Source of the DNA: Euglena gracilis
Taxonomy: Eukaryota
Length of the DNA: 64,000 bases
Direction: 5' to 3'
Assembly (NCBI GenBank): GCA_039621445.1
Contig: CP154954.1
Location: 22,642,954-22,706,953, forward strand
Shown: piece by piece, positions 4,152 to 61,900 of the stretch
Layout: each line of letters begins with the position of its first letter
How positions within the stretch are numbered: the first letter of the stretch is position 1
Translations under genes and position numbers: made by a program
Notes under the pieces: model-generated
What the model was told of the DNA's origin: nothing
Databases searched by the model: none
What the model saw: the letters and a program-made list of their open reading frames with translations, nothing else

Positions 4152-4199
<48 letters not shown>

Positions 4200-8098: not shown

Positions 8099-8929
<831 letters not shown>

Positions 8930-10739: not shown

Positions 10740-11119
10740 CGCATGTATGTGTGTGTGACCCACAGATGGGTGTATGTGTGCGAGTTTGTCATTCACCTAT
10801 GGATAAACACAAACATGTGTGTGTGTGTGTGTGTTTACAGAAGTTTTTATGAGTATGTGTGTGAATATGTATGCATATGTATATATACATATGTGTGGAT
10901 ATGTACGTGCATGTGTAAATGGATACGTGTATGTATATGTACATGCTTTTGTGTATATACATGTACACACATATGTATATGTACATGTATACGTTTATGC
11001 ATATGCATGTGCATAAACATATGTATATGCATATGCATATGCACACACATGTATATGTGTATGTATATGCATATGTGTATGTATATGAATATGTATATGT
11101 ATCTGTATATGTATATGTG

Positions 11120-11171
<52 letters not shown>

Positions 11172-11340
11172 CATATGTATATGTATATGTATATGTATAT
11201 GCATATGCATATGTATATGCATATGCATATGCATATGCATATGCATATGCATATGCATATGTATATGTATATGTATATGCATATGTATATGTATATGTAT
11301 ATGCATATGCATGTGTATATGTATATGTATATGCATATGC

Positions 11341-11438
<98 letters not shown>

Positions 11439-11451
11439 GTGTATGTGTATG

Positions 11452-11495
<44 letters not shown>

Positions 11496-11561
11496 CATAT
11501 GCATATACATATACATATGCATATGTATATGTATATGCATATGCATATGCATATGCATATG

Positions 11562-11592
<31 letters not shown>

Positions 11593-11675
11593 ATATGCAT
11601 ATGCGTATGCATATGCATATGCATATGCATTCATGTGTATGCATAGCATATGTATATGTGTATGTATATGTATGT
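10740..11675. repeat. (ATATGT/ATATGC)n alternating purine-pyrimidine microsatellite
   Basis: Directly visible; degenerate at the left end. Confidence 0.95.
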
Positions 11676-31600: not shown

Positions 31601-34600
31601 TCGCGAATCTGAAAAAATTTCGCGGGAAATGTGACAGAAATCATGGAAATCATGATTCCGATTGCGATTTCCGCGATTCAGACCGCGACATTCGCGAATC
31701 TGAAAATTTTTCGCGGGAAATGCGACGGATATCATGGTAATCATGATTCCGATCACGATTTCCGCGAATCTGAAAAATTTTCGCGGGAAATGCGACGGAA
31801 ATCATGGTAATCATGATTCGAATCGCGATTTCCGCGATTCAGATCGCGGCATTCGCGGATCTGAAAATTTTTCGCAAGAAATGCGACGGAAATCATGGTG
31901 AATCATGATTCCGATCGCGATATCCGCGATTCAGATCGCGACATTCGCGAATCTGAAAATTTTTCGCGGGAAATGCGACAGAAATCATGGTAATCATGAT
32001 TCCGTTTGCGATTTCCGCGATTCAGACCGCGACATTCGCGAATCTGAAAATTGTTCGCCAGGAAATGCGACGTATATCATGGTAATCATGATTCCGATCG
32101 CGATTTCCGCGAATTTGAAAATTTTTCGCGGGAAATGCGACGGAAATCATGGTAATCATGATTCCGATCGCGATTTCCGCGATTCAGATCGCGACATTCG
32201 CGGTTGTGAAAAATTTTCGCGGGAAATGCGACGGAAATCATGGTAATCATGATTCCGATCGCTATTTCCGCGATTCAGACCGCGACATTCGAAAATCTGA
32301 AACATTTTTCGCGGGAAATGCGACGGATATCATCGTAATCATGATTCCGATCGTGATTGCCGGGATTCATATCGCGATATTCGCGAATCTGAAAATTTTT
32401 CGCGGGAAATGCGACGGAAATCATGGTAATCATGATTCCGATCGCGATTTCCGCAACTCAGATCGCGAATTTCGCGAACCTGAAAAATTTTCGCGGGAAA
32501 TGCGACGGAAATCATGGAAATCATGATTCCGATTGCGATTTCCGCGATTCAGACCGCGACATTCGCGAATCTGAAAATTTTTCGTGGGAAATGCGACGGA
32601 TATCATGGTAATCATGATTCCGATCGCGATTTCCGCGAATCTGAAAAATTTTCGCGGGAAATGCGACGGAAATCATGGTAATCGTGATTCCGATCGTGAT
32701 TGCCGCGATTCATATCGCGACATTCGCGAATCTGAAAATTTTTCGCGGGAAATGCGACGGAAATCATGGTAATCATGATTCCTATCGTGATTTCCGCGAC
32801 TCAGATCGCGACATTCGCGAATCTGAAAATTTTTCGCGGGAAATGCGACGGAAATCATGGTAATCATGAGTCCGATCGCGATTTCTGCGATTCAGATCAC
32901 GGCATTCGTGAATCTGAAAATTTTCGCGGGAAATGCGACGGAAATCATGGTAATCATGATTCCGATCGCGATTTCCGCGATTTAGACCGCGACATTCGAA
33001 AATCTGAAAAATTTTTTCGCGGGAAATGCGACGGATATCATGGTAATCATGATTCCGATCGTGATTGCCGGGATTCATATCGCGACATTCGCGAATCTGA
33101 AAATTTTTCGCGGGAAATGCGACGGAAATCATGGTAATCATGAGTCCGATCGCGATTTCTGCGATTCAGATCACGGCGTTCGCGAATCTGAAAATTTTTC
33201 GCGGGAAATGCGACGGAAATCATGGTAATCATGATTCCGATCGCGATTTCCGCGACTCAGATCGCGACTTTCGCGAATCTGAAAAAATTTCGCGGGAAAT
33301 GTGACAGAAATCATGGAAATCATGATTCCGATTGCGATTTCCGCGATTCAGACCGCGACATTCGCGAATCTGAAAATTTTTCGCGGGAAATGCGACGGAT
33401 ATCATGGTAATCATGATTCCGATCACGATTTCCGCGAATCTGAAAAATTTTCGCGGGAAATGCGACGGAAATCATGGTAATCATGATTCGAATCGCGATT
33501 TCCGCGATTCAGATCGCGGCATTCGCGGATCTGAAAATTTTTCGCGGGAAATGCGACGGAAATCATGGTGAATCATGATTCCGATCGCGATATCCGCGAT
33601 TCAGATCGCGACATTCGCGAATCTGAAAATTTTTCGCGGGAAATGCGACGGAAATCATGGTAATCATGATTCCGTTTGCGATTTCCGCGATTCAGACCGC
33701 GACATTCGCGAATCTGAAAATTGTTCGGCAGGAAATGCGACGTATATCATGGTAATCATGATTCCGATCGCGATTTCCGCGAATTTGAAAATTTTTCGCG
33801 GGAAATGCGACAGAAATCATGGTAATCATGATTCCGATCGCGATTTCCGCGATTCAGATCGCGACATTCGCGGATGTGAAAAATTTTCGCGGGAAATGCG
33901 ACGGAAATCATGGTAATCATGATTCCGATCGCTATTTCCGCGATTCAGACCGCGACATTCGAAAATCTGAAACATTTTTCGCGGGAAATGCGACAGATAT
34001 CATGGTAATCATGATTCCGATCGTGATTGCCGGGATTCATATCGCGATATTCGCGAATCTGAAAATTTTTCGCGGGAAATGCGACGGAAATCATGGTAAT
34101 CATGATTCCGATCGCGATTTCCGCAACTCAGATCGCGACTTTCGCGAACCTGAAAAATTTTCGCGGGAAATGCGACGGAAATCATGGAAATCATGATTCC
34201 GATCGCGATTTCCGCGATTCAGACCGCGACATTCGCGAATCTGAAAATTTTTCGTGGGAAATGCGACGGATATCATGGTAATCATGATTCCGATCGCGAT
34301 TTCCGCGAATCTGAAAAATTGTCTCGGGAAATGCGACGGAAATCATGGTAATCGTGATTCCGATCGTGATTGCCGGGATTCATATCGCGACATTCGCGAA
34401 TCTGAAAATTTTTCGCGGGAAATGCGACGGAAATCATGGTAATCATGAGTCCGATCGCGATTTCTGCGATTCAGATCACGGCATTCGTGAATCTGAAAAT
34501 TTTTCGCGGGAAATGCGACGGAAATCATGGTAATCATGATTCCGATCGCGATTTCCGCGACTCAGATCGCGACTTTCGCGAATCTGAAAAATTTTCGCGG

Positions 34601-36097
34601 GAAATGCGACGGAAATCATGGAAATCATGATTCCGATTGCGATTTCCGCGATTCAGACCGCGACATTCGCGAATCTGAAAATTTTTCGCGGGAAATGCGA
34701 CGGATATCATGGTAATCATGATTCCGATCGCGATTTCCGCGAATCTGAAAAATTTTTGCGGGAAATGCGACCGAAATCATGGTAATCGTGATTCTGATCG
34801 TGATTGCCGCGATTCATATCGCGACATTCGCGAATCTGAAAATTTTTCGCGGGAAATGCGACGGAAATCATGATTTCCGCGACTCAGATCGCGACATTCG
34901 CGAATCTGAAAATTTTTCACGGGAAATGCGACGGAAATCATGGTAATCATGATTCCGATCGTGATTTCCGCGATTCAGACCGCGACATTCACGAATCTGA
35001 AAATTTTTTCGCGGGAAATGCGACGGATTTCATGGTAATCATGATTCCGATCGTGTCGGCCGCGATTCAGATCGCGACATTGGCGAATCTGAAGATTTTT
35101 CGCGGGAAATGCGACGGAAATCATGGTAATCGTGATTCCGATCGTGATTTCCGCGATTCAGATCGCGACATTCGCGAATCTGAAAATTTTCGCGGGAAAT
35201 GCGACGGAAATCATGGTACTCATGATTCCAGTCGCGATTTCCGCGATTCATATCGCGACATTCGCGAATCTAAAAAATTTTTCGCGGGAAATGCGACGGA
35301 TATCATTGTAATCATGATTCCGATCGCGATTTCCGCGATTCGGATGGCGACATTCGCGAATCTGAAAAATTTTCGCGGGAAATGCGACGGAAGTCATGGT
35401 AATCATGATTCCGATCGTGTTTGCCGCGATTCAGATCGCGACATTCGCGAATCTGAAAATTTTTCGCGGGAAATGCGACAGAAATCATGGTAATCATGAT
35501 TCCGATCGCGATTTTGGCGACTCAGATCGCGACTTTCGCGAGTCTGAAAAATTTTCGCGGGAAATGCGACGGAAATCATGGTAATCATGATTCCGATCGC
35601 GATTTCCGCGACTCAGATCGCGACTTTCGAAATTTGAAAATTTTTCGCGGGATATGCGACGGAAATCATGTCAATCATGATTCCGATCGCGATTTCCGCG
35701 ATTCAGACCGCGACACTCGCGAATCTGAAAAATTTTCGCGGGAAATGCGACGGAAATCATGGTGATCATGATTCCGATCGTGATTGCCGCGATTCATATC
35801 GTGACATTCGCGAATCTGAAAATTTTTGGCAGGAAATGTGACGGAAATCATGGTAATCATGAGTCCGATCGCGATTTCCGTGATTCAGATCACGGCATTC
35901 GCGAATCTGAAAATTTTTCGCGGGAAATTCGACGGAAATCATGGTAATCATGGTTCCGATCGCGATTTCCGCGATTCATATCGCTACATTCGCGAATCTG
36001 AACATTTTTCGCGGGAAATGCGACGGAAATCATGGTAATAATGATTCCTATCGCGATTTCCGCGATTCAGATCGCGGCATTCGCGGTTCTGAAATAT
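28673..36097. repeat. 91-bp CpG-rich satellite (~80 monomers, with 70-bp deletion variants) with ~1670-bp higher-order repeat
   Basis: Monomer AATCTGAAAATTTTTCGCGGGAAATGCGACGGAAATCATGGTAATCATGATTCCGATCGCGATTTCCGCGATTCAGATCGCGACATTCGCG; identical variant patterns at 29881, 31552 and 33222. Confidence 0.97.
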
Positions 36098-36699
36098 TTA
36101 TTAGCATTGTGTGCTGAATGGATACATACCCATTCCATAACATTCCAGATGGAGGTGTGGACGGTGTGTGAAACAGATTTCGCGCTTCCAAACATCAAGG
36201 CAACACCTCGTTGTTGGAGTACTTGATGTACGGTCGCGCATTGCAAACCGTACCCAAGTATTGGTTGTGCGTGAAATCAGTGTTAGTGTCGTTTTTTGAA
36301 CTGAACATGCAGAAAGAAAACATGGCAAAGCGGAAATTCTCCTTGAGTGCACACATTGGCTGGGGTTGTCAGAGTAGTTGTCCTGGTTGCGCATGTCGGT
36401 TTGGTGGGGTGTGTGTGTAATAATGGGGGTGCGCATTTGTAGCTGCTGGGGGGTGTACAGATGTGTCTGAAATCGACACATCTGGTGGAAAACGGGGTGT
36501 TTGTGCAGCTGGGCGACTACTCGACACCGTACGGACTTCTCGCCTTTGGGCTTTCGTCTTGGAACCCAGTGAAACGTGGGAGGTGTACCGCTACTTGCTT
36601 GCGCTACTTGCTTGCCCTGCCTCATGGGGAACGAAAGTTGGTGTGTGGTTGGGCAGGGGGGTAACTTTCTCGGTACACCCGGTGTAGAAAACGTTGGTA

Positions 36700-37822: not shown

Positions 37823-40800
37823 TCACGAATGCGATCGCGATGCCTCGCGATAAGAATCACGCTTCTTGGCAGGGGCACTGGGTGACCTACCCCGAAGGGC
37901 AACGTTATTCTGCTCATCGCGGACCGGGAACCGGGGGCTCATACCACCGGAACGGTAACCAGATTGCCTTGTACTGCCCGATTGGCGTGAAAACGCGGAC
38001 GAACCCGAACCCCGTGATGAGTTTGAGCCTCGCGAACTTACGATACACCCTTCGCACATCAGGATTCGGACAATCACGGACATATGTCCCGGATTATTGC
38101 ACAAAAAGCACAATTTGTCCGTGGATTGATCCGAAGAACGCGGATATCGCGTTTTCGATCCCGTGTTTGGTGAAGTGGGTGGATGCGGTGATTTTTGCAA
38201 TGCGTTCACCGAACCAGCCGGTAATCCAGCAGTTGGGTGTGCGTTAAACGCGGATTGAATCTGACCAAGAAGCTGTGATAGCTTCAACTGCTTGGAAACG
38301 TAGTTCCAGCGTTGGTCAAGAGTCATTGCATTTGTCGCCACCTCGTCACGGTGGATATCCTTGATGAGGCTAGGCGTGAAATGCATTAGAACAGCGTCAA
38401 ACTGTTCGCGCATTTGCTTTTCATTGAGTTCATCCACTTCAGCGGCAAGTCCCAACCATTTGGCATACCAAAGGTCAATGGACTTCCATTTGCGATCGGG
38501 TGGGGCGCATTGCCGCCACTTGGTCTCCAGGGTAATCCTAGCGACCAAACTTGAACTGGTGGAAGCGTATTGCTCCACCAGGTCATGCGGGTAGCGAATG
38601 ACAAGTTGTCGCGCGCGCTCCTTCTCATCCCTTGGGAGGCAATCGATGAATTCCATCTTGATCACCTCCGGGTTTGTGTCCTGGGTTGGCCCTTTCAATG
38701 CCCAGTAATACTCCCAGTCCCGGAAAAACTGTCTCCACGTGGTTGGATCACCATCCCACTGGGGTTTCACCTTGTTCGCGATTGCGATGGTGCCCTTGAA
38801 GTCTTTCTGAGGAACCCAATGACCCTCGGTGGTATTCCGTGGATTCGGGCCCGGGTACTCTCGAGCACCAAGCGTATCCTTTCCGGATTCTTGTTGGAAT
38901 CGCGAAATTTCTGGTGAAGGTGAATCCTGGTACCGGAAATCCGGTCGCAAACCCTGTTGGTCACCCGTAATAGGGGGACACTCCGGTGTGGGGGTATGTC
39001 GCGCATGCAACATGTGACCCACTCCCGGTGTACGGGTTTGGCTCATTCCACGCACAAGCATGGAATGATGGATTTCTTGGTGGAGACTTGGCGGAATCGC
39101 CGTGTTTTTCGAAAATTCGGTTCCCGTAATGCGAAATTCATCCGAAAACTGGGTTTGGGTTGTGGACAAGGCCAATGGTGGTACAATTCGCGGAATCGCG
39201 GATTGTGACACTCGGGACACGGGTGGTGGTGGTGCATGTGCACCCAGATTCGGGTTGTGGAAACGCGAATCTGGAGCATTTGGCGCATTTTCGGCAATGC
39301 ATACTGCCGAATCGCGGTGTGAAACCCGCTGTTGGTTGGACACATTATCCAAACCGACAGACAAGTCATGCACACTTTGCTCCAAATGCTCAACGAGTTG
39401 GAGTTGGCCGCAAATACGGTCAACTTCATCCTCCAAAGCGCGAATACGCTTGCGGTAACGGGAAAAGTCATCCAGATGCGGAATCCTTTCGGAAATTCCG
39501 GTGACATCTCGGACTAGTTTCCCGTGAGACTCATCCAATAATTGGAGTTGTCCCATTAATGCTTTCACAGCACTTGAGAGGATCTGCAAAGGTGGTGTCA
39601 CCTTGGTTGGTGTGTTAGTGGGTGCAACCGGTGCAGGGTCATCCGACAACGCGGTTGTGGTACCCACGGGCAAATTTCCGGGTTGTGGCTTATCCGACAA
39701 CGCGGAAATCCGCTCATCCAACCTGGTAATCTCACCTTGGGTGGATCGGGCATTCCGATTCACCGATTCCTCAAGCCGTAATAGGCTGTTGCAGAATTCC
39801 TGCAAGGTTTCCTGATTACCAGTGAGCATTTTGTCATAAAATGCCTTGAAATCAGGGTTCTCGGTAATCCGAGAACTGGAAGCTGCAGGTAAAGACTGCA
39901 TTTCCGTTACTTTGGTAGACACCGATGCATACCGGGTCTGGAGTTCCCCAATAGCAGTCTGAATACCGCTAATGTCCGGAACTCGGTGGGAAAGTGCGGA
40001 ATAGCTCTGTTGCAAACCCGCAATGGCCGAGTTAATCCCTCCAATGTCAGATTGCAACTGCAACTGCAGGGAATCCTGCCGTTGTGCCATTTCCGTCACT
40101 TTCGCGCTCAGATTGGATAATCCAACCTGATTCGCGTCACAATAGCAGGTTTTCTGCTCCAAACGGGAAAGTCGCTCCTCCAACTGCCGCACATACGTGT
40201 GGGGAGCAAAATTCTCGTTGGCTTGTGACTGGAATTGCCGAAACTTTTCCGTTTCATCGCACAACTGCATAATGCGGTGTTGCGATTCATGGAAAGTTGC
40301 GGACAAGGTGGTGAAATGGTCCATAGACACAAATCCACCATTGTGGGTTGTTGCACACGAGGAATCTCGTGCATGCAACTGTTGTTGCAAACGCAACAAC
40401 GCGGATGAACAGGACTCCATTTGTCCCGATAGGTGTTGTAGTGAGTCATGCAAGTGCAGAAACTTGGAGTCATTCCGCGTTTCCGCTTCATGCATGCATT
40501 CATTAATTTGCCGGAAGTTTTGCGGGAGTTGTTGGCACATTCTGTCAAAGGTTTCCCGAAAGGTTGCAAGGTCAATACCCGCACTTTCGAAATTCCTTTG
40601 GCAATACTTGCCAACTTCCTGCAAATAATTCCAGCAGTGTTCCAGCTTGGTGAAGACATGTTTCTGGTTGTCCTCATCAAACTGAAGCACTTTGTTCAAT
40701 GCGGTTGCCCACTCTGCAACGCATTGTTGCACATGGTTGAACTGCCTCACAAGGGGGTGATCCCCTGGAAGCCGAGCAACGATATCCTGCACATCCTCAG

Positions 40801-41397
40801 CAGTGAGGAGCTCACCAATGCTCTTCCCATGGGTTGGGATGTACCGGAGAATTCCGGCACCACGAGGCGAGTCTCCGGTTGCCAAGGTAGTGCGGGATAG
40901 TACCCAAGATCGGGTGGTGGTGGCAAAGCTCTGTAAGGGCTTGCCGGTGGAAGAGCGGGTGGGGGTTGAAAGAAACACGGCGTTTCTAGCCCACCATCAC
41001 CAGAGAAGCCCGGTGGCGGAATCACCACGGGTCTCTCTGGTGTGCGCAGCTGCACCATTGCCGCAGACAGAGGCGAATACCCCCGTTGTGGCAAGGTGAG
41101 TGCGGAAGAGGCCGCATTAGCCTCTGAAGCCGATGATGTGGAGGGCTCATCGCCGACCACTGTCAATGACGACAAGTGTTGCAATTGTGACAATTGAACC
41201 AATTTTGCCTCATCGGCGTGGGAACTGGAAGCACTTTCACATAAAAGCTTCCAATCCCCAGTTTCTTGGTCAATGTCTTGCAATGATGCCTGTAATAAGG
41301 CATAGTAGAATTGATGGTTGGGGACTGTGCTTTGCATCTTTCTGATGGCAAAAACAGCAAAAACCCACAAAACTAAGCAGTTGAGTTGTGCTGGCAC
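37823..41397 (-). CDS. Large Gag-like protein: long coiled coil, capsid-like domain, CCHC knuckle (frameshifts near 40950 and 38078)
   Basis: PQWDGDPTTWRQFFRDWEYY...FIDCLP; CFLCNNPGHMS continues RDC if one C is restored. Confidence 0.75.
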
Positions 41398-44166: not shown

Positions 44167-47100
44167 TTACAGACAATACGGTTGGTGTATGGTGTTGGTT
44201 ACGTCTGGATCTGTGTCGTTGCCTGCATACCGTCCCCAGATTACTTGTCGCGCGATCTCTCGCGCAACAGTGATTGATAGAAGTTGCCATGTGTCGGCTT
44301 CAGTTTTGCGTTTTGACCATGCATCTTGTTGACCGAGAAGAAGCTTCATCAGTGTTGACATTAAGGTTAGCGCTTCTTGGCCTAAGCCGCCATAGCAGTC
44401 AACAACAAATGGAATGCAAGTCCATCCCATCCTCCCACAGTTGGCGTCATATTTTGAATGTTTTTCCTTCTCTTGGCGTTCATACCATTCAGTTAGTTCA
44501 GCTGCCTCACGCAACGGTCTGTACGGTGCTGCTGTGTGTCTCACTGTGATATCCACTGCTCCAGGACCATTGGCGTCAAGTCTGCTAATGAGCACATCGC
44601 CCGGGCGTGTTCTCTCTGGACCTCCTTGTTCTTTTTTTTGCTGTAAACCCAGCATCATGTGCTAGTTGGAACACAAAGTCCTGGATTGCACCATGTCGCC
44701 GCGTTATGCCATTTGAGCTGCAGCATACAAGGTGATTACCCAGGTTGTCCATTGGCTTGGTGCAGCGTGGGCACGTTGATCCCGTTGGTGGGCAAACTGG
44801 TGCTCCCAGTGACCACTTTAGAAATCCTTTGAATTCGGCAGAAGCAACCAATGTTTTCAATCCAGAGGATGGTGTGACAGAAGCCCAGGCCATTGCGTGG
44901 GGCCGCTGTTGGCTTGCGAAGCGGACGGCGTCTTGACCGTGAAGGTTGGAGGATAATACCTTTTGTCGTTGTTTCGCAAAGCATTCACCCCACCACTTCT
45001 GTTGAATGTGAGGGCTTTGGGCTTCGTTCAAGAGTGATACATCCGCGGCCCATGTTTGTGTTGGGGGAGTTCCTTCGAGGATGGAGTTGGCAGAGGACAG
45101 GCACTCAACAGTGTCTTTCGGTATTCCTCGGTCTGCCAGACCCAGGGTGCGTCTGCCATTGCTGACAAACGTCACAATGCCGGATATCCGTGCTGGGAGA
45201 CGTTCCCGTGATGGGTCCCGAATTCCGAGTCCGCCATGACGCACAGGTAGGGTGGCCTGAGCCCATTGATTGTCATCGATGGGGGATCCAACAATGTTGC
45301 TCATTGTGTTCCTGATTTCTTTGGTCAACAAAGCACATGCGTCATTTGCCTGCCCCAGTTCTGTTGCACGCATGAGGTCATTAACTTTGCATGCATCTAG
45401 GCAGGTTCGTAAGAGGCAGAACTGAATTTGGGCCTGCGGCAGGTTCAAAAGGGCCCGACAAGCTTTCTGCACACTTGTCGCACGTTCAGCCCACACTTCC
45501 CCCGCAAAGCCTCCGCTTTGTGGACAGCATACCGGGATTCCCAGGGCCCGTATACCAGAATCGGGGGAGTAGTTCACGATTGGGACCGCACGAAGTGGGC
45601 TGTTTTGCGGCATTTCAGCACGATTGGCTTCTGTTGCGGCAGGGCCCCACAGGCGGCATTTTTTTGCGTTGAGGTGTATGCCTAGTAGCGTCCCCTGTCG
45701 TTGAATTTCTGTAATTGCTGCATGTAATTGTGGGAGGGTTCCCAGGATGTGTCTATCATCCAAATACCACAATTGGAGTGGCACAACCTCTTGCAAGGAC
45801 TCAACGAGGGGTTGCAACGCCAAGGCGAATCCGGCTGGGCCACAAGGGTCCCCTTGTTGTACGCCAGAGGCACTCCGAAGGTGTGATGACCCACAAAAGA
45901 GCGGGCTGTGTTCGGCGTAGCAACTCTCGAACCAGACGTACACCTCCGGACAGCGTTTAGCCACTTCAGCAAGGACTGTCTTTCTTTTTACGCAATTAAA
46001 AGCATTGCTGAAATCTACCTGTAACAAAGCCCAGGTGCTGTCCTGTTGCATGTGCAGGTGATTTACTTCTTGTTGCAGTCCCATAGCAATGAGTTCACAT
46101 GCCCCCTGGACCCCTACACCGCATTGTAGTGGCTGCAGTACTTTAAGGCGGTCCCTGATTTTAGGGTGTCTCATCAAGTATTTGCCCACCAATCGACGCA
46201 GGCATTCCCCAGCTGCAATTGGTCGCGTGCCATCCTTCTTTGGGTCAGGAATGGGGTTGGCATTGCCAAGCTCATCAAGGTTTTCGCTTGGATTGCAGGG
46301 TTTTCGAAGAGGAGTCAAACGGGCACCAGCGAAAATCCATGCCACTGAGGTGTGAATTCCGTTTGTCAAACATGTTCGGATGAATTGGTCCAAAATTGTG
46401 AGGAGTTGTTCAGATTGTGTCCCCAGGGGATCAGAGAGCATGTCTTTGAGATGATCTGGGTGAGGATTCCTTCGGGAAAGACATGACTGCTTTCCGTATT
46501 TCAATTAGGCGCTCCCTGGTTCCTTCTTCACTGAGATCGAATTCGAGGCGAGGGAAGTCCGGAGGCAGATTTTGCCTTCCAGGTTGGGGTTCAGGTGGGT
46601 GCAAGGCAGCCAACCGTTCCAAGATTAGCGGGTCATCTGCATCTTGGATTCCATCAGAAGTCAGCATGCGGCAGGCTTTACTGACCGCCCCATGGCTGAC
46701 AAGGCTTTGAACACGGTTGCACAATCTTTCTTGGCTTTCTGCCTCGAAATTTTTTGTCTGACTTCGTGTTCTCTTCCTTGGGTTTTGTGCATCGCGAGTT
46801 TGGCGAGTCTCATCCCACGAATCTTCGGTGGACCGGTTGAGGTAGGCATTGGCTCTCTCAGTAATTTTCCGTCCGACTGCAGCCCAATGGCTTTTCCCGC
46901 TGCGCTTCAATGGAGCAAGCACAGCTTTTGGGAAGCACCAAAGTGCGTGTAGGGTCTCCCATCCTGGCTTGGACACAAAGCGACTGAGGGTGCTGCAAAA
47001 GGCGAGCCCTACGTTTCGCAACGCTCCCCGTGGGATATGGACCAACGTGCCTCGATTGTCTTGGGAAATTTCTTCCCAAGATGGGTGCAGTGGTGGGCAA

Positions 47101-50100
47101 GGTTGCGAAAATGGGGTGACTTGCATCGTGTCAGCGTTCGTCGAGGATTGCGCCGGTGCTGGGGCCACGGGGGCGTGCGGCCTTCGACCATTTTGGCACT
47201 CTTGCTCTTGCCCTTGTGGAAAGGACGGCACAAAATTCTCAGTCAAGCCCTGGCCCTGCGGCGCATGCCCGTGAATTTCGGAAATCGCTGAGCGCACCCG
47301 GGACTCTAGTTCGTTAATGACCATGATTCGCTCAGCTGCGGGTGTCCCGGGGCCCCCGTTCAAACTGGGAAACGGCATTACAGCCTGAGACAAAGTAGGC
47401 GAGAACAGCGGCGTCGAGTGCATTGGGAACCAAGATCCAAGGAGTGGTCGCTCCGTCGGCGGCACAGCAGAGGTCTGTGCGGCTGAGGCCATTTCAACGT
47501 CTTCCTGCTCGGGAGGGCGGGTTTCTGTTGGACCTGGGTTGCTTTCAATATCGCCACAACTGGCAAGGCTTTTACCCCTGCCACAGCGGGGGGACTGTAC
47601 CCATACCGCGGTTTTTCCTGGTCAATCAGTTGCCGTACATGGTTGGCGTGCCCTGGGGCCACATTGGACAACTTAAATTGCCCTGGGGCCAGAGTGCAAG
47701 TTGGTCGTCGGCAATGGGGCCGGGTGCTAGGTCGCAGGGATAGGGGTCCTTCACGTGGGGTTATCCGGTGAATAGGTCCCGGCTCGAGATGAACGTCACC
47801 ACAGAGTGTGACATCTTGGTGTCTGGGCCTCTCGGCTATGACAGCGTCGTTAGGGCTTATATCACCGTGTTGGTCACCTTGTTGGTAGTTTAGTTGCCTT
47901 TGTGCTGTCCGTCGTGCCCTCCGGACATGACGGTCAACTGAAACTACTGATCTTGTCGGACGTAAGAAGGCCATGATGTCCAGGATATCAACGGTGTGTG
48001 CATTCAATGGGGAGAGGTCGGACGAGGAGGGCTCCGTTGGAGGTACTCTGGGGAAAGTGCCTCTCGGCCGGAGAACGTTGGGTAGTGTCATTAGGTGAAT
48101 AGGGGGCAGGTAGAGGTGAAAGGCCTCGCCGAAGTTGCATACTTCGGACCATAAAACAGTCAGCAACCACATAATGGCATGTACACTCGATGGGGAGTCG
48201 TGACGTGGTGGTCGATGTGGCCATAGCCCTATGAGCACAAACAGAACTCCTCTCAAAACTTCCCAGCATTCGGTGAGCTCATAGACGGTAGTGTTCTCAA
48301 CCAGGACATCGGAAAGGAAGGCGTCTCGGAAACTTTGAAGTTCTGCATCCACCTCTTGAAGGCTCGCCAGCAATCTGTGCCGGATGAAGTTTTCTTGAAG
48401 TCCCCTGGAGACAGGGATTGTTGGTCTTTCCATGGTAGCCAGACGGAAGTAGATGGGTCCTGGTTGTGTTTGGACATCACCATGGGTGGTGATTCGTTCC
48501 CCCCTTCCAGTCGGCTGGTGTCCTTCTGAAAACTTTTCCCGGGTTTGTTCTGCCGTATATCCTCGGCTTGTTACGGAGTGTACTTTTGCTGTCTCAGTAG
48601 AAGGAAATACTGTGGCTGAAAAAACAGGGCAGGTTTCCCTGTGGTGCAAGCACCAACCTGCCGAGGCAGTGATGGTTTCAATGTCACACAAAGTGCATTT
48701 CAGCCAGTATGTAGCTTTGGGAAGAAGTGATTGGGAGGAGCCATCGGGGCCTTGCCGCAACGGTAGTTCGGCCTTGATCCGAAAGAAATCAGTCATGTTC
48801 ATGGCAACAAGTTGGTCCAATAAATCCATGACTTCACCACAGGGTCCATTAAATGCCGTCAGCGGGCCTGGATTGGTTTCCACATCACCCATTGTTGTCA
48901 GAGAATCACCTCGCCCCGTCTTCAGATATGCATCTTCCGGTTTCTTCCCCCCGTGCGGGCTTGCAGAGCAGGGGTGTATGTCGCCGGCTGTTTCTGCCAT
49001 GCGGGATTTTTTTGTGCCAGCACAAGAGTAATAGTCTGACAGGGAGTCATTTGAGTCATCAAGATCGCTGGCGGTCCATACAGACGGGGAAAGACGATCA
49101 GCCAATCCAACGTCACACGCAAACTGTAACGGTCTAGGCATGTCATCCATCTGCCAAATTCTTGGGCAGTATCGCCAGGCAATGGGCAGGGTTGGTTCTC
49201 GGGAGGGTGTCAGCCTCTTCTTTGTCCTCGGGGGGCAGACTGCTTCTGCTGCTGGCACTTTTTGTTTGTTTTTTTTTGCGATAGCTCGGCGTACTTTTTC
49301 TATGTGCGACGTGTCCATTCCTTCCTCACGTTGTTCCTCTGGGCGGTATTGATGAAGAATCTGGGCGATTCTGATCCGTTCCAGGATGAGGTTCTTTTTT
49401 GGTGGGGGGGGCGGTTGCACGACGTTCGGCGCTGTCAGTGGCAACGTGAGTTTCATATCTGTGTGCACCATTTTTTGTGATTGCCGAATGTCCACTGTTC
49501 TCCCAATGTCGACCCACTTTTCCTGAATGTTGGCCAGTTTTCTGGCGACCATCTCGTGAAATAAAATGCCTCCTGCTTGCTGTCTCATGCGCCTTCTCCA
49601 AAAAAATTCTTCCCTGAGGGACCGAAACTCTGGTTTTTCCCAAACTGGGACCCCTTCCAGGGGGGTGTTGGGTGGGGAAGCTTGTAAATCTGTTGCCTGG
49701 GGGGGGTCTTGCCATTGAAAGGGGGTGGGTTCCTCCTGCAGGATCACTGTGCCCAGTTTGGCCCACTGTGTGCCATCAAACATGGTGGGTTTTGTTGGAA
49801 TTTTAAAAATGCGAAAGGGTGGGCCTGGCCCCCCCCCCCCTTTTGCAGGGGGGGCTGATACTGGGGGGCTGGTGCTGAGATTTTTTGGTGTTGCATTTGG
49901 CTGGGGTTGATGATCCTCCTCTTTTGGGTTGGGGGGGGGGGGTTGTTTTGTCAACTCATTTTGATTTGGAGTTGCCTTGGGATGAAATTCTTGAACCATT
50001 TGTTTTACTGGGTGAAAGTGTTGTGTTGAGTTATCCCCTCTTTGGGGGGGACTTTGTGAGACAAAAGGGAAGGCTGCAGGCAGAAAAGCACATTGGAAGG

Positions 50101-50905
50101 CTGATGGTGATGCCAGTACCACATCTGGGATTAAGGGTGCTGGCAGGCCAGAGTTGTGTAATGGTGTTGGGAGGGGGGGGACTTGAGTACTCTGGCCTGT
50201 GCTGAGAAAGGCTCTGAGGCTTCTGAAGAGTTCAGCCTCTCTCCTTCTCTGCTCTTCTTCTCTGGTCCAATTCTTCCTATGGTCATCTTCTCTGCTCCAG
50301 TTTGATTGCAGTGGTTGCTGAGATTGCTGGGGTTCACCCCAAAGGTTGGTGTGTGATGGAATGTACATTTGTATGATTGATGTGACAGATGAACATACTT
50401 GACTTCTACCCACTGGTGGGCATTGGAATGGGCTGTTCATTGGAATACCCACTGATGGGCCTGACTGTGGAATGCCCAGTGCTGGGCTTGCTGTACAGGG
50501 GGGCCCCAGACTCACTTGCTGGTGGAGCTGGGGCTGAGGAGAACTCTGTTGAGATATATGATAACTGGGTCGACCTCTCTGCCATGGTGGCTTGTAATCT
50601 CTTCCAAACCTTCTCTGTAGGTACTCTTCGTGCTCTTCCCTCTCTTGCCAAGTCCTCTTCCTTCTCTGTGAGCTGCTGTCTTGGCTTTCTCTGTCACTAT
50701 GTACAGGGCGGTCAGCAGTGAGTCGTTGTGCCACAGCAGTGGTTAGCACCGGCACCAACAGCGGCAACAACATCTTGGCCAGCAGCTCCAACTGTCCAGT
50801 GTCCACTGCAGCAGTAGGTGTACTTGAAGGGTTGGTTGTGGTAGCAGCTTGATTGTCTTGAGTCTTGGGGTCTTCTGGAGGGCCATCCGGCCCCTTTGCA
50901 GCCAT
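44167..50905 (-). CDS. CRE-like polyprotein: Q/P-rich N-terminus, four 2A-like motifs, RT, CCHC finger, PD-(D/E)xK endonuclease (about 3 frameshifts)
   Basis: RPIAAGECLRRL, QVDFSNAFN, GVQQGDPCGP, YLDD, GGLGI, CPRC...HLVCC, RRH, RPGDV, VDIT, EKEKHSKY; ATG at 50905, 14 nt after the SL exon. Confidence 0.85.
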
Positions 50906-50919
50906 GGTGGTTATGCAGA

Positions 50920-50944
50920 CGAAAAAAAATAGACACTCAGAAAG
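50920..50944 (-). other. Euglena-type spliced-leader exon (nt 2-26)
   Basis: CTTTCTGAGTGTCTATTTTTTTTCG matches the Euglena SL exon as I recall it (ACTTTCTGAGTGTCTATTTTTTTTCG); not followed by an SL-intron GT. Confidence 0.9.
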
Positions 50945-51084
50945 GATCACCAATTTAGGTATCTCCCATAACCCGCGAATATTTCGCGGGTATTTGTGAA
51001 CACCAAAATGCGCAGGTCACCCTCCTGCGCATTAAAGTGAATACAATTAAAGTGCACGCGCATTAATTTGCAGACCGGTACCTC

Positions 51085-55896: not shown

Positions 55897-56624
55897 CCCC
55901 CCCCCCCCGCCCGGGCTCCTTCGGACAGTGCCAAACGGTAGACTGGGGGGGGGGGGTAGTGGGTAGTCGGCCGACTAGTCGGCCGACTACCCAATTGGTC
56001 CACCGACTAGTCGGCCGACTAATTGGTCGGTGGCTAGTCGGCGGGGGGGTAGTGGGTAGTCGGCCGACTAGTCGGCCGACTACCCACGTGAGGGTAGTTC
56101 GACTGGCCAACTGGCCAGTTGATTGGCTAGTGGATCAACTAGCCTGTACCCCCTCCCACTCTAAGGTTGAGCCTCCCCATGAATGTTTTGAACTTTTGCT
56201 GATTTGCTTGTGAGATTCTGCGGTCCAGATGCACATCAGATATCAATCGAAAGGTCACGGCAAGACATTCTGAATGATTGCCTCAGAACTCACCCACACT
56301 GACTATGAATGGCGGTTCCAGGCAGCCAATTGGGGGGGAGGGGGCTAATTGTCCTCCCCCCCCAACAGGACAGAGGGGGGTCTAGGCCACCAAAGGTCAG
56401 CCAAATAGTTGGGGGGTTTCACAGAATTGTAGGTTGTCAGTGTGGAGGTAGGTGGCAGGGGGGGATTGATTTTCTACATCGAGAACTGTGTCCAAGACAC
56501 CGGTTCGGGCGTGAACCCAGGACACCGGTTCGGTCCTAGTCACCGGGTTCACGCCCGAACCGGTCTTGCACAGTTTTTAAAACCGTTAACCGTTCACGGG
56601 CTTCCCCACGTGAGGAAACGGGGT

Positions 56625-56660
56625 GCGTTCACGGGTACGCACTACGGCACCCGTGAACGG
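56625..56660 (+). other. Putative recombination site X-left (14-8-14)
   Basis: GCGTTCACGGGTAC-GCACTACG-GCACCCGTGAACGG. Confidence 0.65.
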
Positions 56661-56690
56661 ACCCCGTTTTCACATATGCGCACCCGTGGT

Positions 56691-56725
56691 CGGTTCACGG
56701 GTGCACAGACGGCAGCCGTGGACGG
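56691..56725 (+). other. Putative recombination site Y-left (14-7-14)
   Basis: CGGTTCACGGGTGC-ACAGACG-GCAGCCGTGGACGG. Confidence 0.55.
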
Positions 56726-56928
56726 AATTTTGCCTTTAAAAAAGGGAAAACATTTACGCAGTAGGGAAGAGGATTTGAAACAAATGGCGAACCTGGTGAA
56801 CTTGAGGGGTGGGGGCAGGAATGCAAGAGGTGGCATAGGGAACTGACACGCGGCAAACTAAATTTCGGTGCGAGGCACATGCTCGCGATGCCTTTCGGCA
56901 TGGTCAGAGGAACAACAGGACGGATAAC

Positions 56929-58109
56929 TCAACGACAACCCTGACAAATCCACGCTTTTTTCGGCGCGCGACGCAGCTCAGCACACACAAAATGATACGT
57001 CTCGCCACAAACGGAGCAACGAACACTTTTGGCTGCACCCACATCCGTGTCACTAAAAGCACGCACACAACACCGTGGGCACAACGGAGTAGAGGACGGG
57101 GGTGCGGGTGGGAAAACGGAAGGGACAGCAGACAGAATTTGGATAACGGTGGCGCCTTCCGGCGCCGGGTCTGCGTGCCAGTTCAAGTACGCCGACCACC
57201 TCGCCGCATTCCTGGAGGAGCTGGCGCAGTCGTCCCCACTGTTTACCAGCCGTGACATGGCACTTCTTCGGGCCAAGTCCTTGAAGGTCACCGGTCTGGA
57301 TAAAACCCTGGACACCCACTTTCCGATGCCGCAAAAATATTCACCCGAAATTGGGGTTGGCGGCAGGGTCCAGGCGTTCAGACTGCGCACGGAACGGAAC
57401 AAAAAATTTGGTGCACCTTCCGGCAGAGGAGCACCGTGCGCTTCCAACATGGCCACCTGTCTGTCGATTGCCTGAACGGGGCACGTACGCGGGTCATCGC
57501 CGGACGTGATCAGCAAAGAGAAAAGTTGGTGATCAACGTGATTGAGGTCTCCGGGCAAGTTTTTCATTGTGCCCACGACGATGCTGTACGATTTTCGCCC
57601 GTCCATAATTTGCGGCTTGAAACTTTCGACCACCAACCGACGAAGAACCTCCCCTCGGTATCCGGTGGTGTACCCCAACAAAAGTACATTCCTCCTTTGG
57701 ACCCAAAATGGTGTGTTCCCTTCGGCAGCCTTCAAAACTGCGAGCAACTCGTCCGCCTGCAAAACTGTGTTTGTCAACCCACCCTTGGCCTCCATTGCCT
57801 TTTTGGCCCTTTCGTGCGTGACGAGTGGCTTCATTAACGCATTGAACTGCGGGAACTGGGACACAGACGATGGTACAATGATGGCATAAACGGGAGCCAA
57901 TGCCTTGTAAATGTTGCTTACAGCATTTACATAGGTCCGAAAACTGGACACTGGCATGGAGCGAAGGCGCCCATCTTTTCCAGACTGCCTAAAAGGGCAT
58001 CCACTCCAGCAGCTCCTAGGGAGCTGGCACCACGTAAAACAGCCAGAAATTCATCTACGTTGGGGGGGCGGGGCATCTGTGCTTCCATCATGTTGGCAAA
58101 ACGCTTCAT
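56929..58109 (-). CDS. Crypton-like tyrosine recombinase with C-terminal PHD finger (one frameshift near 57960)
   Basis: TGYRGE (R), TMKN (K), CPV, FLFR, TFKDLARRS (HxxR position); PHD CPRC...CSVC...YHFVC...WICQGC. Confidence 0.75.
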
Positions 58110-58209
58110 CGGACTGTGGGGAAAAGCAGCAGACAGACAGAAACACAAATGTTAAAAACCCCAAAAAATTCAAATTCCGATCACGGGTAACACCTTGCGC
58201 AACCGTGGT

Positions 58210-58244
58210 CGGTTCACGGGTGCACGCACGGCAGCCGTGGACGG
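58210..58244 (+). other. Putative recombination site Y-right (14-7-14)
   Basis: CGGTTCACGGGTGC-ACGCACG-GCAGCCGTGGACGG. Confidence 0.55.
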
Positions 58245-58249
58245 AAATT

Positions 58250-58285
58250 CCGTTCACGGGTGCGCACTACGGCACCCGTGAACGG
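58250..58285 (+). other. Putative recombination site X-right (perfect 14-8-14)
   Basis: CCGTTCACGGGTGC-GCACTACG-GCACCCGTGAACGG. Confidence 0.7.
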
Positions 58286-58619
58286 CCAAAGTTCACCCGT
58301 GAACGCCAAAAACGAGATTTTTGACCCCCTAGGCATCTCGTTAGGAAGCGCTTGCCTACTGCGAGGAAGCCCGTGAACTTGGTTAACGGTTTTAAGACAA
58401 AAGCGGGGTCCGATCTGCAAAGCAAAGGGCTGTAGGGTAACAACAACAATCCACTCGCTTGGTCTCTTATGTCTTTGTGTTCACACACACACACTCTATA
58501 TACAACACACAGGTGGTTTGTCGCGATGATGCATCAGCGTAGGAACAAACTTGCCTGCTTTTGTGTGGGGAAGCGTTGCTTCCAAAGAAAGAAGCTGTAG
58601 AACGTGGAGGGTCGATTGA

Positions 58620-58657
<38 letters not shown>

Positions 58658-58761
58658 ATTCGGTATCAGCAGATCTCGCGATCATAGATCGCTCGATCTG
58701 CAAAGCAAAGGGCTGTAGGGTAACAACAACAATCCACTCGCCCCTCTGGATTGTGTGTGCA

Positions 58762-59150
58762 TTAAGGCTGTAGGGTGCCAATGAGTTGTAGCTGGGCCGA
58801 TTGGTGGCATAATTGTTCCCAGAGGGCGTGCGCGGCGGCGACGGCCTGGATTACTTGAGGGGGGGAGGTGGGGATGGTGCGGGACAGGGGGTCCGCTGGT
58901 TGTAGATGTGTGGGGCAGTGAAGCACGTGGACCTGTAAACGAGACCATAAACACCGGTTTAAGATTCTGCGCGCCATGATGGATAGTTGTTTGTTGGAAA
59001 GGGCGGGTCGTAAGTGTGTGGCCAGCCAACAGGTGCCCAGGTTTTGTCCACGATTATGTCAGAGCCCCCACAACCCAAAAGGGCGGCAACAAGACGATTT
59101 GTTGTGCTCGAAAGCAATGCCGAAAAAGCCCCTGGCGTGTCTGTTGTGCC
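58762..59150 (-). pseudogene. RNase H C-terminal part
   Basis: IIVD...NLGTCWLATHLRP...LQVHVLHCPTHLQPADPLSR across one frameshift. Confidence 0.65.
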
Positions 59151-60549
59151 GACGCAGCAGCCCTCCCTGCCCCGAGGGGGCAGCCGTCTGCCGAACAAGC
59201 ACAGAAGATGAAACAAGAAAAAGCCAGAAATCTACGTGGGGGCAAGGGGAAATACAGGTGAAAGGGAGGGGGTGAAGGAATATACAAAAAAAATACCAAA
59301 TAGACAAAACGGGACTGCAAGATGGAGGTTCGGGGGCAGAACGAAGAAACCAGGAAAAGCACAACGTAAGAGGAAGTCCAGGGAGGCCCCTGAAAAAAAC
59401 AGACAGAGCGAGGTGGTGCACTCAAGGAGTCAAACAGAGCACAGAGCTAACGTCAATCAGTTACAACAGCAGGGGTGCAGCCACGAAAAACGCGTAAAAG
59501 CACGGAAAAGAATGGAGAGGCAGAGAAGAGCAGCTACAAGGAGAGGAAGCCCGTAAACAACGTGAAGAAACGACAGACAAAAAAGCCGCATGATCACGAA
59601 TTGGTGAAAGTAAAAGGAGCGAGACAAGGGCGGCCCCAAAAAATCACTATGGGATGGGAGCGACATGAAACGAGCCGAAGAAAGGAGGGGTCGGCATGAA
59701 AAAGAGAAAGGAAGGCTAAGGACAAAGAGAAGCTGTGAAAACAGGGAGGTGGAAGCAAGGCATTCGAAACAGAGAGGGCTCCCCGGTGGAGTAAATAAAA
59801 AATGGAGTAACAGCAGAACAGCCTGACAAGAGGCACACTACAAAACAAAGGTGTGGTGGACAGGCATAAAGAATAGGAAAGAGCATCGGCTCTGAGGAAA
59901 GGTGGAAAGGAGACCTTTGCTGCCAGTACCCAAAGAGTAACAAATGAGGCGAGGCGAGCAAGCTGATAGTAGAAGGAAAGGTAAAGAGGGAGGGTAAAAA
60001 ACGAGTTGAAGTTGTGCGAAATGAAGGCATTAACGGCTGAAGGGAGAGCGTAGGCCGGTCCTAAAGCAACAGTGCCTTGGGCCGGGCTGGGGGATGGTTT
60101 GATCGGAGAAAGAGGAAGCTTTATAACGAACGGAATGGCCTGGTTTCTGTTTGGCCACGCAGACACACACACTGAGTAGGAGGGGGTGGATCTGGCATGA
60201 AAGAAGCGAAAGCCCATTGAACACAGGAAGGGACGGTGAGGATAGAACACTCGAACTCGTCACATAGAGGTCTACGTGGACCTGTTAAACGAACATACAA
60301 CACGGGTCTTAACTCGCCCCATTGTGTTATTCTGTTTTCCGCGCTTTCCAATAATCGTGCACCCCACACACACAATACCACCCTTTCTTGATGGGAGAAG
60401 AACCATAACCTGGCATCAGGCATCATTCACGTTTTTACTCGCCAGGCCCACCCCCCACTTTTCCCGTTATTGTGCCACCGCTGAACACTCACCCCCCCAG
60501 CGCGTGGACCTCCTTAATGGCCCCCGTCCTCTAAAAAAGCCCCCCTGAA

Positions 60550-61900
60550 TGCAAGAGAGTCCAATGAATAACCCCTTGATGCATGCTGCATCACCCAACA
60601 AATAACGGGAGTGAAGAAGGGGGCTGGGAGGATGGATCGGATACGGTCGTAGGCCCGCCAAGGGTTACAAGCCAACACTGTGAGGTCCAAAATAGCCAGG
60701 GTCATGCCAGGGGTCGGTCTGCTGCGGAATCGGGGACCATGCCACTTATGCATGTACCAGGAACGAAGTAAGGTGGTGACGCCTGTCAAGGGTCTGGTAG
60801 CCCACAAGGCGTGCCCACAAATGACGTCAATACGTTTGGGGAAGACGGGGGAGTGGGAAATGAGAATATGGCGTGCGATGAGATTCTGGAGGGTGGCCTG
60901 GGTGTTAGCGATGGTGCGGGCTTTGAGGTCAAAAACTTTTCCAACCCATGTGATGCTCTGTGTGGGTTGGAGAGTGGATTTCTGTGAGATGATCAGTTGT
61001 TGTCCACGGAGGAAAGCGCAGAACCATTGGGTCACAATTTGGGTGAACTGTTCGCCGACACACAAAAGGAGTATGTCGTCGTAGTAAACAAAGATCCAGA
61101 ATGTGCAATGTGGGCGGTCACGAAAGGGGGCGGCCTGTATTCCTTGATGTAATAGGTCCTCCAGAGAGCGTTGGGCTAAGACGGGGCTTAAGTTCCAGCC
61201 AAACGGTGGGGAGTCAAAGGCGAACCCTGTGGTCCGGAACAGGTTGCGGGCATGGTCGGGCAAGCGTAAGCTCCAGAAGAAGTTTGTTAAATCCAGCGTG
61301 GTCCCCCACAAAACCTCCGGTGGGTGTGAGGCCAAAATGCGGGCAATGGAGCGTGTGGTGGGTAACGCGAAATGGGGTATGGGTTGTGGGCTGAGTGTGT
61401 TGATTCCCCGCAAGTCGGCGATGAAGGCGGCTTTTTCCGCAGATTTTGGTCGCAAGAAGACCGAGAGGTTATCAGCGGAGCACCCGTCAGCAGGGGATAC
61501 AGGGTGTAGGAAACCATCGCGGACCAAGGCATTGAGGAGAGTTCGGGTGACAGGTCCGGGCGGGCGGGCGGTTGGAATTTCCCCTTTGGGGTAAAAGCGG
61601 CTATCTGTTGCGGCAGGCCCGTTGGAATGACGGAATCCCAAATGTGTCGTGGTATGGGGTAACACCCGCGAAAGCCGAGGCCCTTTTCCGCCACGTGGTG
61701 AGTTACAAGAGCTGGAGTGTGTTCGAAAGGGTAGTACTTAATCAGTAGGAGCAACAGCCAGGTGGTGAGATGTAGGCGAAAAAGGAGGGAGAGGAAGAAG
61801 TGCAGCGTAATGTCTATACATTGGGTTTGCCGGCGTTGGAAGAAGGCGTGCATGAGGAGGGTCAAGGAGTTGAAAATCTGGGTTCGGGTGAGAGGGTGGG
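60550..61900 (-). pseudogene. Reverse transcriptase plus start of RNase H (frameshifted, truncated by a CAG-type MITE end at ~60547)
   Basis: FLRPK...FIADLRGIN, LDLTNFFWS, PFGWNLSP, YYDD, WVGK. Confidence 0.85.

Follow-up and report, generated by a model that had tools for sequence, protein, structure and literature searches.

The recombinase-only DNA transposons called Cryptons provide the closest point of comparison for the locus described here. A first-pass annotation of this DNA, made from its letters alone, had stated that Cryptons typically lack terminal inverted repeats (TIRs), and the available text of two papers agrees, giving them no TIRs or long repeats and only 4-6-bp direct repeats (PMC3212892, PMC13465315). 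Active Cryptons were first observed in Chlamydomonas, according to the accessible portion of another report (PMC9977147). For tyrosine-recombinase core sites in general, an arm-spacer-arm geometry is given in the available text of the first paper (PMC3212892).

The locus occupies positions 56577-58395 of a 64,000-nucleotide stretch of Euglena gracilis DNA (hereafter the window; contig CP154954.1, positions 22,642,954 to 22,706,953). It has TIRs that begin with TTAA, lox-like dyads (named X, Y and Z) near both ends, and the remnant of a gene that joins a tyrosine recombinase to a PHD finger. We read it, at a probability of roughly 0.6, as a non-autonomous copy of a multi-copy, Crypton-like, recombinase-only euglenid DNA transposon in which the TIRs would be TTAA crossover half-sites and X, Y and Z would be binding sites.

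Terminal repeats and lox-like dyads

The 1,819-bp unit is bounded by inverted repeats that start with TTAA and match at 15 of 15 positions. The window contains their sequence, TTAAAACCGTTAACC, just twice, at 56577-56591 (+) and 58381-58395 (-), against a mean of 0.09 in shuffled sequences, and the match extends to 29 of 31 nt (93.5%) with a 2-nt indel. This agrees with the TTAA-ended TIRs of about 29 bp that the first-pass annotation had proposed, as does the recurrence of the dyad core within them. A shorter motif, GTTCACGGG, has nine matches in the window and all nine lie within 56592-56701 or 58212-58378 (shuffles: mean 0.83, maximum 4, none of 100 reaching nine). The 14-nt arm that contains this core, CCGTTCACGGGTGC, has 17 matches in the window when up to three mismatches are allowed, and 13 of these are inside the element, six at the left end and seven at the right. 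Shuffled sequences give a mean of 7.4 such matches, and 0 of 100 reached 17. The terminal features and dyads are as follows.

56577-56605 (+), left TIR; starts with TTAA and has one arm-like motif at 56590-56603
56625-56660 (+), X-left; 14-8-14 dyad around spacer GCACTACG, left arm with two mismatches
56677-56730 (+), Y-left; 54-nt direct-repeat unit containing a 14-7-14 dyad (56691-56725) with spacer ACAGACG
56680-56693 (-), lone arm inside the Y-left unit
58177-58212 (+), Z; degenerate 14-8-14 dyad with three mismatches per arm, which has 3 nt in common with Y-right and is a 69% direct-repeat match
58196-58249 (+), Y-right; 54-nt direct-repeat unit containing a dyad (58210-58244) with spacer ACGCACG
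58250-58285 (+), X-right; 14-8-14 dyad with perfect 14-nt arms and spacer GCACTACG
58293-58306 (-), single extra arm between X-right and the right TIR
58365-58395 (-), right TIR; ends in TTAA and has GTTCACGGG at 58370-58378

Because the TIRs and the lox-like dyads have an arm motif in common, the termini are tied to whatever protein binds the dyads. Assembled contigs from four public runs (X1, X3, X6 and X15, the last only guessed to be RNA) were aligned to this part of the window. One contig of run X6 matches the window only from 56576 onward and is preceded by 86 unrelated letters, which places the left boundary of the repeat at the TIR in a second copy as well.

The two dyads X are in direct orientation at a spacing of 1625 nt, are 97% identical over 35 nt, and have the same asymmetric 8-nt spacer. 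The first-pass annotation had located them correctly and described them as identical. The geometry, spacer and orientation stand, but the two mismatches in the left arm mean that the copies are not strictly identical. One of these mismatches (56637) is removed when other contigs are considered, since they read G at full depth in runs X1 and X6, at nearly full depth in X3, and in 18.5 of 21.7 depth in X15. X-left is also part of a longer palindrome (56611-56674) with 26-nt arms that are 88% complementary. The Y dyads lie, as first annotated, at 56691 and 58210 with related arms and 7-bp spacers. The 54-nt units that hold them are direct repeats with 93% identity and a spacing of 1519 nt, and their spacers differ at two of seven positions. 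Dyad Z and the extra arm at 58293-58306 are additions to the original list of sites.

All sites are directly oriented in the layout X-Y-gene-Y-X, with Y inside X at both ends. Tyrosine-recombinase core sites of the loxP/FRT type have 11-14-bp inverted arms around an asymmetric 6-8-bp spacer, and both X (14-8-14) and Y (14-7-14) fit this pattern. The comparison with loxP and FRT made in the first-pass annotation is therefore upheld on geometric grounds, to the extent that the available text of PMC3212892 sets out that geometry.

Other repeats adjoin the unit on both sides. A palindromic repeat of about 95 nt at 56484-56575 lies directly against the left TTAA. It measures 98 nt at 78% self-complementarity, and its exact 20-nt arms are at 56499-56518 and 56545-56564. 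Summed contig depth peaks here within the aligned stretch, variant or tandem forms appear in many contigs, and the repeat has the 7-mer CGTGAAC in common with the arm motif. This palindrome may be a separate family resembling miniature inverted-repeat transposable elements, and a search of 56000-59000 against Rfam gave only sub-threshold microRNA-hairpin matches, all on this neighboring palindrome. To the right of the element, an exact 48-nt direct repeat (58411-58458 and 58694-58741) flanks a tract of about 40 G residues (about 58627-58667) and could be a duplication around another insertion.

The recombinase family and its remnant in the window

Relatives of the protein encoded in the unit form a family with 139 representatives at E <= 1e-3 and 69 at E <= 1e-10. 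An AlphaFold2 (AF2) model was built from a 69-row alignment for one of them, P0150 (38% identical to the relative P0140), rather than for the open reading frame (ORF) in the window. It has a predicted local distance difference test score (pLDDT) of 89 and a predicted template modeling score of 0.79. With this model, Foldseek finds 51 matches in the Protein Data Bank (PDB) at E <= 0.001, and Cre is the top match (E 2.4e-08, TMt 0.68-0.70). A wide structure search that does not depend on Foldseek (VIA) aligns Cre at a Z score of 18.4 (298/324 residues, root-mean-square deviation 3.9, model residues 21-408), followed by XerA (16.9), XerH (16.4), Tn1549 Int (15.3), IntI (13.8) and lambda Int (13.6). 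Lower scores are obtained for type IB topoisomerases, Flp (10.4), the QRICH1 domain (9.3) and Ndc10 (8.7). In all, 28 chains are found at Z >= 8, and 27 of the top 30 rows are tyrosine recombinases, type IB topoisomerases or protelomerases. The other three are QRICH1 and Ndc10, which we take to be recombinase-derived. The N-terminal domain of P0150 weakly resembles ALOG (Z 5.6), and the identity of the family sequence to Cre is only 13-14%. As judged from this model, the family clearly has the two-domain fold of a Cre-like tyrosine recombinase, with a core-binding and a catalytic domain.

Most positions that would form the active site are highly conserved in our alignment A4. These include the Arg of TGxR (56/56), the Lys of GTMKN (59/62), the Lys or Arg before RR (49/52), the two Arg of RR (50/52 and 50/54) and the Tyr of VYH (45/49). 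The second catalytic His is variable (15/49). Sequence-based comparisons are less telling than structural ones: PDB searches with the sequence of P0003 and with the profile of A4 returned no recombinase and a weak helix-turn-helix-like match (E 0.07), and DUF3435, DUF3504 and GCR1_C are not among the families listed for the 69 members. Longer, fused relatives of P0150 were sought without result, which counts as weak evidence, and a search with P0142 in the near length range matched only P0152. The original assignment of the gene to the tyrosine recombinases thus holds for the family as modeled. When the fold is checked by profile and by structure, structure comparison finds Cre, but the Pfam Phage_integrase family is absent for the window ORF.

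The C-terminal domain of the window ORF is a PHD finger, as had been annotated. Pfam PHD matches it weakly, at E 0.0049, and matches 4 of 69 family members, the best at 4.7e-07, and the Cys and His columns are near-invariant in a C4HC3 pattern across 20 sequences. An AF2 model of the tail has a pLDDT of 87, and nearly all Foldseek rows listed for it are PHD fingers (TAF3, ING, AL and MOZ) with TMt values of 0.6-0.7 and E values of 2e-3 at best. A recombinase core and a PHD finger also occur within one ORF in P0015, P0049, P0142 and P0152.

The copy in the window retains only parts of this gene:

56929-57957 (-), 342-residue ORF remnant; recombinase core up to box II (TFKDLARR), joined straight to a pre-PHD motif and the PHD finger
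56932-57081 (-), PHD finger (C4HC3); last 50 residues of the 342-residue ORF
57927-58109 (-), 60-residue ORF remnant; recombinase N-terminus (MKRFANMM...), out of frame with the main ORF
57981/57982, junction of deletion 1; about 72 codons plus 1 nt gone and the frame shifted
57234/57235, junction of deletion 2; the segment with the nucleophilic Tyr and the linker gone

Deletion 1 is recognized from the roughly 72 residues between '...LLGSL' and 'GKDGRLRS' that P0140, P0001 (both JGI) and P0141 have and the window copy does not. The 60-residue remnant matches residues 1-47 of P0140 at 91% identity. Loose ends of contigs read by hand behind 57981 (run X1) give AWVQTRQEKA, and those before 57982 (runs X1 and X6) give PTGGQNCD, both of which are the text of P0140 and P0001. 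Deletion 2 removes the catalytic His/Tyr tail and linker from the 342-residue ORF. In full-length relatives (including P0003, P0004, P0015, P0142 and P0150), TFKDxxRR is followed by AKYxGVHxNTxxVYHR and AAxIL, by a linker running from PLTQLSE to KLED, and then by the C-terminal domain, and the window ORF passes from '...RLVNSG' directly to 'DDCASSSRN...'. Contigs of runs X1, X3 and X15 diverge from the window behind 57234 and read, by hand, ...KLKLEDMGAA, as in P0012. An intron in place of deletion 2 was considered and rejected, because this loose-end sequence runs in frame with the P0012 linker text. Other contigs therefore carry the segments that are deleted here, and no contig piece listed for the four aligned runs spans either of the window copy's own deletion junctions.

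Two relatives are further deletion derivatives. P0140 joins …PEGAP to KAWICQGCR and P0030 joins …YRGEIL to NPPRKRVLKLED…, so that the breakpoints differ among all three ORF-level derivatives. With its frame shifted and its catalytic-Tyr segment lost, the gene in the window cannot be a working recombinase, and the copy is a dead, twice-deleted, non-autonomous one. The first-pass annotation had pictured a functional recombinase gene flanked by its own recombination sites. Its family assignment survives, but this copy is a remnant with two deletions and a frameshift and does not bear out a working 'self-floxed' gene. Within 56577-58395 there is no ORF for a reverse transcriptase or a transposase and no Pfam match to a transposase.

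Among the relatives, P0141 is a Euglena gracilis transcript model (EukProt EG_transcript_28865) that clusters at 90% with P0001, and it gives a hint of both host and expression. The identity of P0001 to the window ORF is 89%. Two relatives with Genlisea aurea as their listed source probably come from contamination. On relatives' contigs of 1.4-3.2 kb the recombinase stands alone or is fused to a PHD finger. A separate observation concerns P0007, a 4,022-residue gene model from the fluke Calicophoron daubneyi. Residues 117-177 of the window ORF find matches in 26 separate stretches of this model, which points to tandem repetition of a related recombinase fragment within an animal assembly.

Copies, proposed mechanism and rival readings

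The element stretch is at least partly present in 20 of 24 listed public runs, the holders coming from 18 studies, and in 15 of the 24 at least half of its sampled words are present. The contigs that align to the stretch number 260, 2612 and 623 in three DNA-type runs. Such numbers, hundreds to thousands of contigs per DNA run, imply that the element is multi-copy. Word depth summed along the stretch is lower in its middle than at its ends and decreases beyond 58397 on the right, which is only a hint, as contig depth cannot rank parts of the element. Scans of metagenome contigs with the protein alignment A3 (111 pattern matches) and of viral contigs (59 pattern matches) gave no confirmed matches, and the terminal DNA pattern had none in the metagenome contigs.

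Beyond the observed repeat anatomy, fold, PHD finger, deletions and copy number, we infer protein binding, a crossover at TTAA, a circular form and roles for X, Y and Z. Intact members would encode one protein with an N-terminal helical domain, a Cre-like recombinase core and a C-terminal PHD finger. This protein is read as the element's own transposase because the unit has no room for a second gene, because the contigs of relatives are small, and because the common arm motif has core-site geometry. It would bind the 14-bp arm motif once per TIR and again in the dyads X, Y and Z just inside the ends. To leave and enter the chromosome, the element may use a circular intermediate and tyrosine-recombinase strand exchange, following the model put forward for Cryptons. 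The two TIRs would then be the half-sites of the circle junction, and TTAA the short crossover repeat that borders the integrated element on both sides. X, Y and Z could be accessory sites with an architectural or regulatory function, and X is also a candidate for a second crossover site in that both copies have the same asymmetric spacer. The PHD finger may direct the enzyme to chromatin.

Several observations weigh against this Crypton-like reading. The termini, the TTAA repeat at both ends and the target are read from a single genomic copy. A junction that joins the two TIRs in a circle would have outward-facing GTTCACGGG cores 28 nt apart, which is unlike X. Cut-and-paste DDE transposons have TIRs, TTAA and heterogeneous internal deletions among their hallmarks too. 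The sequence of other copies departs from that of the window copy at 56860, 56896 and 58125, so a full-length element could hold unseen sequence and even another gene. With respect to the enzyme, the roles of catalytic residues were assigned by motif order and position, not by superposition, and a Lys stands at the position of the first His, three residues rather than two before the next Arg. Pfam Phage_integrase (PF00589) matches 2 of 69 members at E 0.001, and HTH_23 matches 10 of 69 over the stretch that we read as the catalytic tail. The helices of this tail are covered by the Cre alignment in the P0150 model.

The hallmarks just mentioned suggest a different type of element, which we regard as possible and, on balance, unlikely. 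This would be a TTAA-targeting cut-and-paste transposon, similar to piggyBac or Kolobok, whose DDE transposase is encoded elsewhere or has been deleted. In that case the recombinase would either be carried along as a passenger or serve as a resolvase at X and Y, a role with parallels in the Tec elements and in TnpI of Tn4430 and Tn5401. TIRs flanked by or ending in TTAA fit such an element, as do deletion derivatives with varied breakpoints, to which the 14 'skip' joints among contigs of run X3 may be added, and the points of divergence between copies leave room for a transposase. On the other hand, the unit contains nothing resembling a transposase by ORF or Pfam match, the short contigs of relatives carry the recombinase, and the TIRs have their arm motif in common with the lox-like dyads. 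PiggyBac ends begin with CCC, and the TIRs here start differently. A published precedent for a recombinase moved in this way is MarCry-1_FO, in which, according to the available text, a Crypton has been fused with a Mariner element whose DDE transposase moves it (PMC3212892). It is very improbable that no mobile element exists here at all, and that a host or captured gene fragment merely lies between unrelated repeats with the dyads serving as binding sites for regulatory proteins. The broken ORF and the many other repeats in the surrounding DNA would suit that explanation. However, many contigs from several runs contain the whole unit, ends and interior, inverted repeats form its termini, every GTTCACGGG motif of the window is confined to it, and the contig that enters it from another flank does so exactly at the TIR.

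A further alternative, which we consider improbable, takes X as the true crossover site and extends the 'self-floxed' arrangement with a reverse reaction. Recombination between the two X dyads would excise a circle with the gene and a Y-X-Y region, leaving a TIR-X-TIR shell of about 194 bp, and the circle could re-enter any shell that bears X, much as a prophage integrates at attB or a cassette enters an integron. The identical asymmetric spacers in direct orientation accord with this scheme, and Y flanks X on its inner side at both ends. The X-Y-gene-Y-X order is the product expected when a circle with an attP-like Y-X-Y region integrates, and this makes excision between X copies and its reversal chemically reasonable. 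Two joints of the type expected from a circle or tandem copies are also found, one contig of run X3 that connects 58270 back to 56646 with four extra letters, and one contig each in X3 and X6 that connects 58197 back to 56685. These back-joints are single contigs with at most 33 letters on the short side and a likeness of 88, and they pass through repeats that are prone to k-mer mis-joining. Among the 15 joints listed, of 25 in all, there is no deletion between X copies (1625), no deletion between Y copies (1519) and no circle junction between TIRs, although these negatives are weak because the 36-nt X repeat is longer than the assembler word length and rare forms are dropped. A look for circle junctions in public contigs has produced two weak candidates of circle or tandem type and, among the joints listed, neither of the expected deletions. 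Moreover, the palindrome around X-left spans both what would be the target side and what would be the circle side, and the readable derivatives (the window copy, P0140 and P0030) are broken inside the gene, not at X or Y. Spacer mismatches block strand exchange by Cre, Flp and lambda Int, and exchange between the Y dyads, whose spacers are ACAGACG and ACGCACG, is accordingly unlikely. The Y-Y excision that had been suggested from the sequence therefore lacks support. If a cassette of this kind nevertheless exists, and we think the odds are poor, it would represent a new superfamily in which a Cre-fold enzyme with a PHD finger moves a cassette through TIR shells at the 36-bp X, with Y and Z as accessory sites. 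Such a system would be a natural eukaryotic counterpart of phage att sites and integron cassettes, and possibly a recombinase and site pair that already works in chromatin.

The window as a whole is rich in transposons. Reverse-transcriptase domains (RVT_1) occur in ORFs at 44585-46504 (-) with E 1.4e-13 and at 60514-61737 (-) with E 1.1e-11, and large neighboring ORFs (37823-40996 and 47378-51016) match no Pfam family above threshold. A 7.4-kb satellite array at 28711-36099 has a period of about 91 with sub-periods of 70, and its copies, about 83 in number, match at 73%. About 134 units of a (TATGTA)n microsatellite cover 10870-11673. The first part of the window (1-9100) is 67-69% GC with a strong excess of A over T, long open frames on both strands, 78-nt and 426-nt tandem units and an (AG)51 run, and its appearance is that of repetitive or low-complexity sequence, not of genes.

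Comparison with known mobile elements

A full-text literature search covering freely accessible papers, with subscription-only papers and Repbase outside its scope, found no transposon with a recombinase-PHD protein, no tyrosine-recombinase DNA element from Euglena and no such layout of sites. Within those bounds, the result agrees with the first-pass annotation, which knew of no described element with this arrangement. We take the locus to represent a real mobile-element family, structurally unusual and probably undescribed. It would extend recombinase-only transposons to euglenids, and the fusion of a recombinase to a PHD finger would be new and suggests chromatin-guided integration. The mechanism of Cryptons is still a model, and a family that combines a Cre-like enzyme with explicit dyads and TIR half-sites would make direct tests of binding and crossover sites feasible. 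The element may account for part of the very repeat-rich Euglena genome and, if active, its enzyme and 36-bp site could become a tool for genome engineering.

Resemblance to other TTAA elements and to other eukaryotic users of tyrosine recombinases is partial. PiggyBac and Kolobok elements likewise have TTAA-bearing TIRs at both ends and give rise to derivatives with internal deletions. Unlike them, the unit has no DDE transposase, and its terminal sequence differs from piggyBac ends. DIRS, Ngaro, VIPER and TATE elements are eukaryotic, euglenozoan ones among them, and use a tyrosine recombinase, and the weak ALOG match of the N-terminal domain is a further point of resemblance. The element described here differs from all of these in having no reverse transcriptase or RNase H, no inverted terminal repeats with an internal complementary region, and no split direct repeats of the A1-B1-A2-B2 type, and in its X-Y...Y-X order.

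The simple site-specific systems resemble the element in protein and site structure. Like Cre/loxP and Flp/FRT, the family combines a two-domain fold, for which Cre is the best match, with 14-bp inverted arms around an asymmetric 7-8-bp spacer, and two direct X copies flank the gene. Those systems serve plasmid or phage maintenance and use one or two sites, whereas here up to 13 arms are arrayed at the ends of a TIR-bounded, multi-copy chromosomal element that is known from sequence. The lambda-type integrases and the elements Tn916 and Tn1549 offer a parallel for the proposed arrangement of sites, in that the integrated form has crossover core sites on the outside and accessory sites on the inside, and Tn1549 Int is a strong structural match to P0150. 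In Tn916, imperfect inverted-repeat ends become the core site in the circle. These are bacterial systems with a separate arm-binding N-terminal domain and Xis, and the accessory sites of the Euglena element look instead like further core-type dyads.

Cryptons agree with the element in gene content. Both encode one recombinase and lack a reverse transcriptase, and both have a short terminal direct repeat (TTAA in this case) and an accessory DNA- or chromatin-binding domain fused to the enzyme. The Crypton hallmark of a recombinase without a reverse transcriptase or a DDE transposase is found in the window copy and in the short contigs of its relatives. The accessory domain is a PHD finger, whereas the available descriptions of Cryptons name GCR1_C, DUF3504 or a C48 peptidase, and those descriptions include neither TIRs nor recognizable arm-spacer-arm sites, both of which are present here. 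In structure, the Crypton-derived QRICH1 domain (9.3), Ndc10 (8.7) and Flp (10.4) are further from the family than Cre, Xer proteins and phage integrases (Z 13-18). Taken on its sequence features, the element would best be placed as a variant of the recombinase-only DNA transposons that falls outside the named Crypton groups and departs from the Crypton pattern in possessing TIRs.

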